A DNA stretch of 1,291 nucleotides. Source: Escherichia coli. Its GTDB lineage: Bacteria > Pseudomonadota > Gammaproteobacteria > Enterobacterales > Enterobacteriaceae. Numbering within the stretch: the stretch's first letter is position 1; each line of letters starts with the position of its first letter. The stretch lies in the NCBI RefSeq assembly GCF_003334255.1, contig NZ_QOWU01000165.1. One strand, given 5' to 3'. The notes under the pieces were generated by a model. That model was not told the DNA's origin. It did not search any database and was given only the letters and a program-made list of their open reading frames with translations. Of this stretch, positions 1 through 171 are shown one piece after another. The position numbers were made by a program, and so were the translations under genes.

Positions 1-171
1 GCGCGCCTTGATTTATTAACCGGTAAACGGGTGGTGTCTGTCCAGAAAGATGGTCGCAGAATTGAATATACGGCGGCTTCTCTGGATGAGCTTAACCGGG
101 CGATCAATGATGCGGAGTCGGTACTGGGGACAACCCGGCGTCGCCGTCGTCCGCTGGGAGTGAGGTTATGA
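1..171 (+). CDS. W: 3' end of a phage head-tail joining / head completion protein, lambda gpW-like (5' end outside window)
   Basis: Frame 1 is open from position 1 to TGA at 169..171 and translates to ARLDLLTGKRVVSVQKDGRRIEYTAASLDELNRAINDAESVLGTTRRRRRPLGVRL. The motif LTGKRV-x-VQKDGRR-IEYTA resembles the C-terminal half of lambda gpW as I recall it (…[21 protein letters not shown]…). It sits immediately upstream of, and overlaps, a portal gene, as in the lambda order W-B. Homology is from memory, not a search. Confidence 0.72.
   Translation, partial: ARLDLLTGKRVVSVQKDGRRIEYTAASLDELNRAINDAESVLGTTRRRRRPLGVRL
156..165 (+). promoter_or_regulatory. Ribosome-binding site (Shine-Dalgarno) for the portal gene, embedded in the 3' end of the W-like gene
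   Basis: GGGAGTGAGG at 156..165 is purine-rich and complementary to the anti-SD. GGGAG lies 7 nt and GAGG 2 nt upstream of ATG 168..170. Confidence 0.5.

Follow-up and report, generated by a model that had tools for sequence, protein, structure and literature searches.

The window, a stretch of 1,291 nucleotides of Escherichia coli DNA, begins inside a gene for a gpW-family head-tail adaptor of the phage 21 gene 3 type (positions 1–171, plus strand; codons 13–68 and the stop codon TGA), in which five consecutive arginine codons (positions 136–150, plus strand) encode residues R58–R62. This run enlarges a feature that is both known and conserved, the basic patch in the carboxy-terminal arm of gpW proteins, and is nothing new in kind. 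In the reading that we favour, to which we assign a probability of roughly 70%, the patch serves electrostatic docking of the adaptor onto the portal, with R60 and R61 as its core and R58 and R59 as tolerated extras. The finding is an ordinary one, because it concerns the enlarged form of a conserved family patch in a very common and already annotated prophage gene.

Frame 1 of positions 1–171 translates as ARLDLLTGKRVVSVQKDGRRIEYTAASLDELNRAINDAESVLGTTRRRRRPLGVRL, followed by the stop codon. The arginine codons are CGG (136–138), CGT (139–141), CGC (142–144), CGT (145–147) and CGT (148–150), and they precede PLGVRL and the stop, as the initial annotation had read them. Numbering of the run as R58–R62 of a 68-residue protein follows from full-length relatives, which place the start of the window at codon 13. 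The DNA of the window is 99.9% identical to that of Escherichia phage PhiR5_1, and 98.8% to that of phage 21, and in both phages the same open reading frame is annotated as head-tail joining protein W or gp3. The W protein of PhiR5_1 is identical to that of the window across the part held by the window, and gp3 of phage 21, a head completion protein (M81255 and OL657228), is the same gene, in the same gene order and overlapping the portal gene by ATGA in the same way. The protein matches the Pfam family gpW (PF02831; E = 1.3e-22, protein residues 4–67, model positions 3–66 of 66), PHROG 75 'head-tail adaptor Ad1' (E = 3.1e-29 across residues 1–68) and the structure chain 1hyw_A (E = 3.3e-15, residues 4–66). 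With about 68 residues it is collinear with lambda gpW, contains the hairpin motif and R32, and ends in an arm composed of a basic patch, then Pro/Gly and a short hydrophobic end. In the ungapped 68-column alignment with lambda gpW, residues G20, K21, R22 and V23, and Q27, K28, D29, G30 and R31, are invariant. The gene lies between those for the terminase large subunit and the portal, the portal side being present in the window and the terminase side in identical or near-identical loci. Frame and gene identity are secure, because the phage annotations, PF02831, PHROG 75 and the downstream match of the portal to PHROG 21 all agree; the assignment to gpW made in the initial annotation is thus borne out, and the different true reading frame that it had allowed for is contradicted by the phage annotation and by PF02831.

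By homology, the protein of the window is predicted to have the two-helix and beta-hairpin fold, to join filled heads to tails and to bind the portal as a dodecamer. Codons R31 and R32 (positions 55–60, plus strand) lie in the beta-hairpin and are conserved as columns of the alignment of close relatives; R32 is probably the counterpart of the lambda residue that clamps DNA. The gene is an annotated structural gene in a prophage head module that is among the commonest in E. coli: of 5,426 complete E. coli genomes, 1,860 contain the W/portal junction (window positions 1–400), at 2,975 places, with a median of 2 and a maximum of 5 copies per genome and with 7 plasmid-borne copies. This type of sequence was already made public with the record of the phage 21 head operon. 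An open reading frame of 37 amino acids in the +1 frame (window positions 50–163) reads the arginine run in another frame, and around 15 database 'proteins' (for example P0053, P0054, P0059–P0063, P0066, P0070 and P0083–P0087) are frameshifted W sequences ending in ...GQPGVAVVRWE. The points of the shift are scattered, which suggests decayed prophages or assembly errors and not a programmed frameshift.

Lambda gpW (PDB entries 1HYW and 2L6Q; virions 8K38, 8XOW, 8XPM and 8XQB) also has 68 residues and aligns without gaps to the window's W, at 50% identity. Our literature search found no relevant paper on entries 8XOW, 8XPM and 8XQB. Where lambda gpW reads QRRRG, the window's W reads RRRRR, and the gap-free alignment agrees with the initial annotation that the two stand at equivalent places. 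Because the proteins are of equal length and align without gaps, the run is longer by the substitutions Q58→R and G62→R and not by insertion. Over the last 14 residues, the window's W has a net charge of +6 and lambda gpW one of +3. The proposal of an expanded basic tail therefore stands in one respect, the patch being the largest among the 87 family representatives described below, but not in another, since no residues have been added. In 200,000 shuffles of the 68-residue W protein, which has 12 arginines, a run of at least five arginines arose in 0.45%.

For the survey of the family, a profile search was run over 1.84 billion cluster representatives; it gave 461 matches, of which the best 150 were used, and 87 of these covered the full length, with alignments that reach the profile's end. 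Within the last 18 residues of these 87 gpW representatives, the longest arginine run is of one residue in 11, of two in 40, of three in 29, of four in 6 and of five in only one, which is the window's own cluster; a run of two or more is found in 76 of the 87. The net charge of the last 14 residues averages +3.3, with a maximum of +6, and is at least +1 in 85 of the 87. The tails have the general shape ...LG xxx RR(R) x P x G V/F x x, with the consensus ..RRxPxGVxx. The basic patch is a family-wide gpW trait of variable length, and the window lineage tops the range among the 87 representatives. A poly-arginine tract both common and invariant among gpW homologues, a possibility raised in the initial annotation, is not what is found: the patch is common and variable in length.

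The C-arm of the window's W (residues 55–68, GTTRRRRRPLGVRL; positions 127–168, plus strand) was delimited by the gap-free alignment with residues 55–68 of lambda gpW. In free lambda gpW, residues 55–62 have the shifts of a random coil and lack long-range NOEs; the carboxy-terminal tail adds nothing to stability (PMC3208555). In the lambda virion, residues 4–68 are ordered and form a beta-hairpin (residues 23–36), a bundle of two helices (4–22 and 37–54) along with the 'extended C-arm' (55–68) (PMC10721106). Lambda gpW is needed for the joining of filled heads to tails and is bound to the portal as a dodecamer (PMC10721106, PMC3208555). Adaptor and portal bind 'mainly' through the electropositive top of the former and the electronegative bottom of the latter, and the C-arm pairs with residues 320–324 of the portal protein gpB by beta-sheet augmentation; the gpB loop of residues 303–319, on the outer surface, is unmodelled (PMC10721106). 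At the other side of the adaptor, the amino-terminal helices of gpFII ring the beta-barrel made by the gpW hairpins, and the DNA is clamped by hairpin residue R32 (PMC10721106). The segment gpB 320–324 is named 'portal wing' in the same paper, yet the domain boundaries given there place residues 280–342 in the clip; in our analysis the equivalent pairing strand was counted as clip. Since the lambda C-arm comprises residues 55–68, R58–R62 should belong to the arm extending to the portal and not to the parts that meet FII or DNA. By homology, this arm would lack order as long as the protein is free and would stretch out along the portal in the virion. As transferred from the lambda structure, the arginines would probably contact the portal, though they may instead touch a neighbouring adaptor subunit. 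An FII-like partner for the patch, as the initial annotation had suggested, is unlikely, given that the lambda C-arm contacts the portal and gpFII holds the hairpin barrel (PMC10721106).

The portal gene follows directly (lambda gpB / phage 21 gene 4 type, 5' part, codons 1–374; positions 168–1291, plus strand; assigned from the annotations of PhiR5_1 and phage 21) and its reading frame continues past the end of the window. Its start codon ATG (168–170) overlaps the W stop codon TGA (169–171) as ATGA. The 374 residues encoded in the window match the portal family PHROG 21 with E = 2.4e-132, and portal relatives match Pfam PF05136 (Phage_portal_2). Portal codons 317–321 (TNSVT; positions 1116–1130, plus strand) align with lambda gpB 320–324 (AAPVR) in both pairwise and multiple alignments, and the portal alignments place codon T313 (positions 1104–1106, plus strand) in the loop just before this pairing strand. 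On the W side, the terminal PLGVRL (positions 151–168, plus strand) aligns with PAGFYV of lambda; it may be the segment that pairs with the portal beta-strand, the pairing C-arm residues being left unnamed in the lambda paper (PMC10721106). In several loci the portal gene is split into two open reading frames by frameshifts or stops (L097, at 7210–8766, L006, L018, L058, L074, L075 and L089); presumably these are defective prophages or sequencing errors.

The portal clip has a net charge of −3 to −6 in all 22 lineages listed, and the W tail one of +3 to +6, so that the general charge complementarity between a positive tail and a negative clip is robust. The mechanism that we propose starts from this and from the lambda structure. 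The C-terminal arm of the phage-21-type adaptor, carrying R58–R62, would be basic and, by homology with lambda, disordered in the free monomer. When twelve adaptors bind a DNA-filled head, the arm would stretch across the acidic portal clip, its last residues adding a strand to the portal sheet, and the arginine patch would most likely supply the positive half of the electrostatic docking. The arginine-rich core is a family-wide element, and R60 and R61 would be its constrained part. The two extra arginines probably arose from an SRRRR-like or QRRRG-like ancestor through changes of single bases, and would be largely dispensable, drifting by point mutation and by whole-codon slippage.

Variation among close relatives indicates which of the arginines matter. 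The W tails were read from DNA, as tblastn of W against phages ended at residue 52, where the low-complexity filter masked the arginine run. Besides RRRRR, close relatives have RCRRR, SRRRR, RRRGR, RSRGR, SRRRH and SRRPR, as well as the in-frame deletions RRRR and RRR, the latter in a cluster of 16 sequences (protein P0018). In their alignment R60 is the same throughout and R61 almost so; variation falls at positions 58, 59 and 62. The RRRRR allele, recognised in IMG/VR by its codon pattern (five CGN codons, PLGVRL and stop), occurs in at least 120 viral contigs; in the same database the deletion allele TT-RRRR occurs in 10, SRRRR with an AGY codon in 9 and RCRRR in 7. Phage 21 and three related isolates have RCRRR and not RRRRR, with TGT at codon 59. 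This codon is present in four independent records (M81255, OL657228, ev017 and Lambda_4C10) and so is real; RCRRR is therefore tolerated by a plaque-forming phage. The TT-RRRR-P form is seen on two codon backgrounds, CGA CGC CGC CGA and CGC CGC CGT CGC (L088 and L105–L114), and this whole-codon length polymorphism is consistent with slippage in the CGN repeat. Phage 21 RCRRR, the portal clade that several alleles share and the in-frame deletions on different codon backgrounds together argue that R58 and R59 would be near-neutral.

Codon usage bears on the level at which selection acts. The core arginines are encoded by CGA CGC AGG in lambda, CGC CGC CGG in Gifsy-1 and CGA CGC CGG in N15, and by CGA CGC CGC CGA in the four-arginine deletion allele. 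Arginine is retained through synonymous codon changes, and selection acts on the protein and not on the RNA. A W protein identical to that of the window is encoded in 80 viral contigs, in which codon 58 is CGC in 29, CGG in 26 and CGA in 25. Across these contigs window position 138, the third base of this codon, is tri-allelic and by far the most polymorphic site of the 207-nucleotide gene. The dominance of RRRRR, together with the three synonymous variants of codon 58, hints that R58 is under some selection and not purely neutral.

The portal gene also has its translation signals in this region. A Shine-Dalgarno-like sequence, GGAGTGAGG (positions 157–165, plus strand), lies inside W codons 64–67 and contains the pieces GGAG (157–160) and GAGG (162–165); the phage 21 records M81255 and OL657228 annotate a ribosome binding site at the corresponding GGAG. 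The 21 nucleotides at window positions 151–171, CCGCTGGGAGTGAGGTTATGA, are identical in almost all loci of the phage 21 group, and the codons directly upstream vary synonymously. Since the final six codons of W, the Shine-Dalgarno sequence of the portal gene and the ATGA overlap all fall in this near-invariant segment, PLGVRL is doubly constrained, by the protein and by portal translation initiation.

How far the length of the run is tied to the type of portal was assessed on pairs of W and portal taken from phage records, assembled contigs and viral contigs; four contigs either ended before the portal gene was complete or carried it in split form. Tail types accompany portal types: PAGFYV occurs with the portal strand YY[A/S]AAPVRLGG, PLGVRL and PVGVRL with [W/Y]Y[D/E/S]xNx[V/I][T/K]LGG, and PAGV[S/G]F with YYASNE[V/I]KFNG, as expected for adjacent genes whose products touch. 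At a finer scale, the initial annotation's suggestion that the arginines are an adaptation to a different portal is unsupported, because RRRRR, RCRRR and SRRRR occur within a single portal clade of at most 6% DNA divergence, and RRRRR and RCRRR even occur together within portal clusters of at most 1%. A more specific form of the idea is that the extra arginine offsets the loss of Arg313 and the gain of Asp/Glu309 in 21-type portals, the length of the run being tuned to the portal; we regard such co-adaptation as unlikely. It accounts for the residues seen in all 75 readable portals adjoining an RRRRR W, which have Asp/Glu at 309 and Ser/Thr at 313, and for Arg313, which is found in the outgroups SRRRR, SRRRH and RSRGR and beside the deletion allele TT-RRRR, whose 12 loci represent two codon backgrounds. 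However, Ser/Thr313 is found beside every RRRRR, RCRRR or TTSRRRR W, and TTSRRRR (8 loci) and RCRRR (9 loci) have one arginine fewer than RRRRR on these same portals, partly within the clusters of at most 1%, so that a charge swap at portal position 313 does not hold as a rule. The Arg313 pattern has no statistical power, because one change on one branch suffices to produce it; moreover, the two sites are about 950 bp apart and inherited as a block, and the idea presumes that the run lies near residue 313, which turns on the register and direction of the strand pairing. The charges of tail and clip are negatively correlated over 92 pairs (rho = −0.37, p = 2e-4, unthinned). After thinning to portals of less than 90% identity (22 lineages), rho is −0.24 for the clip (p = 0.28) and −0.51 for the loop of residues 300–326 (p = 0.014), but at 80% (12 lineages) the correlation of tail charge with clip or loop charge is not significant (p = 0.10–0.36). 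The trend is in the expected direction and weak, and it leaves room for co-adaptation; specific tuning to the portal comes down to one lineage-level coincidence plus this trend. Slightly less likely still is a compensatory charge swap between adaptor and portal, in which a fifth arginine is paired with a portal that has lost Arg313 (with Asp/Glu309) and the number of arginines acts as a tunable 'electrostatic zipper'; were it true, arginine number in the gpW arm would track the charge of the portal loop for which the lambda structure has no model. As for FII, all RRRRR loci have an FII 86–94% identical to that of phage 21, and RRRR and SRRRR relatives have an FII only 46–56% identical to it, next to portals 88–97% identical to the window type. 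FII lies about 5 kb downstream of W and is mosaic with respect to the W/portal pair in L088–L091 and L100, which indicates a recombination joint between the head genes and FII. This mosaicism has no bearing on the C-arm, because the lambda structure places FII at the other end of gpW, and co-variation of FII with the run was put down to module mosaicism and relatedness. The co-variation of run length with portal or FII type that the initial annotation had proposed to look for thus amounts to a weak charge anti-correlation, lost on thinning, and to an FII pattern that reflects mosaicism and relatedness. The run lacks tight coupling to portal or FII.

Simple drift was the other possibility raised in the initial annotation, and it fits positions 58 and 59 better than adaptation does, but not the conserved core R60–R61. 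In its pure form, with replication slippage in the CGN repeat and no functional meaning for arginine number beyond the core, we consider drift improbable, a shade more so than the charge swap. Natural alleles with three, four or five arginines, and with Cys, Ser, Gly or His within the run, speak for it, as do the whole-codon deletions on two codon backgrounds and the family range of one to five arginines among the 87 representatives. Yet the five-arginine allele dominates, and at codon 58 synonymous variants are frequent and non-synonymous ones rare, which resembles purifying selection. Pure drift also overlaps with electrostatic docking onto the portal, the reading that we favour, and differs from it only on whether R58 and R59 contribute anything. 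Very improbable is a constraint on the nucleic acid, the G+C-rich CGN run acting as mRNA structure or spacer that tunes translational coupling of W and portal. The run does lie 18–32 nucleotides upstream of the portal ATG, and the ATGA overlap, the Shine-Dalgarno sequence within the last W codons and the near-invariance of the 21 nucleotides after the run would suit such a role. However, the arginine codons vary synonymously and in number among relatives while the amino acid is kept, and RNA structure around the run was rejected, the predicted fold of window positions 110–200 not exceeding shuffled sequence in stability (z = 0.16; in 110 of 200 shuffles the fold is as good or better). Least probable of all is binding of DNA by the basic tail, which would guide the free adaptor to a DNA-filled head or retain the end of the genome. 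In its favour, gpW is needed to stabilise packaged DNA and an arginine ring contacts DNA in lambda (PMC10721106); but that ring is formed by hairpin residue R32, which is conserved separately in the window's W, and the lambda C-arm lies on the portal beside an outer-surface loop and not in the channel (PMC10721106).

The value of these results is modest and descriptive: the C-arm of gpW has a basic patch of one to five arginines, with the window lineage at the maximum. The natural alleles also offer a ready mutational map for docking of adaptor and portal, in which positions 58 and 59 tolerate change and positions 60 and 61 do not.

Among other known systems, lambda gpW is likewise encoded between the terminase large subunit and the portal. 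It and the window's W share the hairpin TGKRV..VQKDGRR including R32, residue G55, the RRR core and P63/G65, and they differ in the ends of their tails, PAGFYV in lambda and PLGVRL here. Their portals differ in the pairing strand (AAPVR in lambda and TNSVT here), with 61% identity over 521 residues between lambda gpB and the full-length relative of the window's portal. No sequence similarity of the window's W to the adaptors HK97 gp6 and SPP1 gp15 was detected in our searches. The fold of these adaptors is related to that of gpW (PMC11661146). They perform the same job as a dodecameric ring below the portal, and are longer than gpW, with two extra amino-terminal helices.
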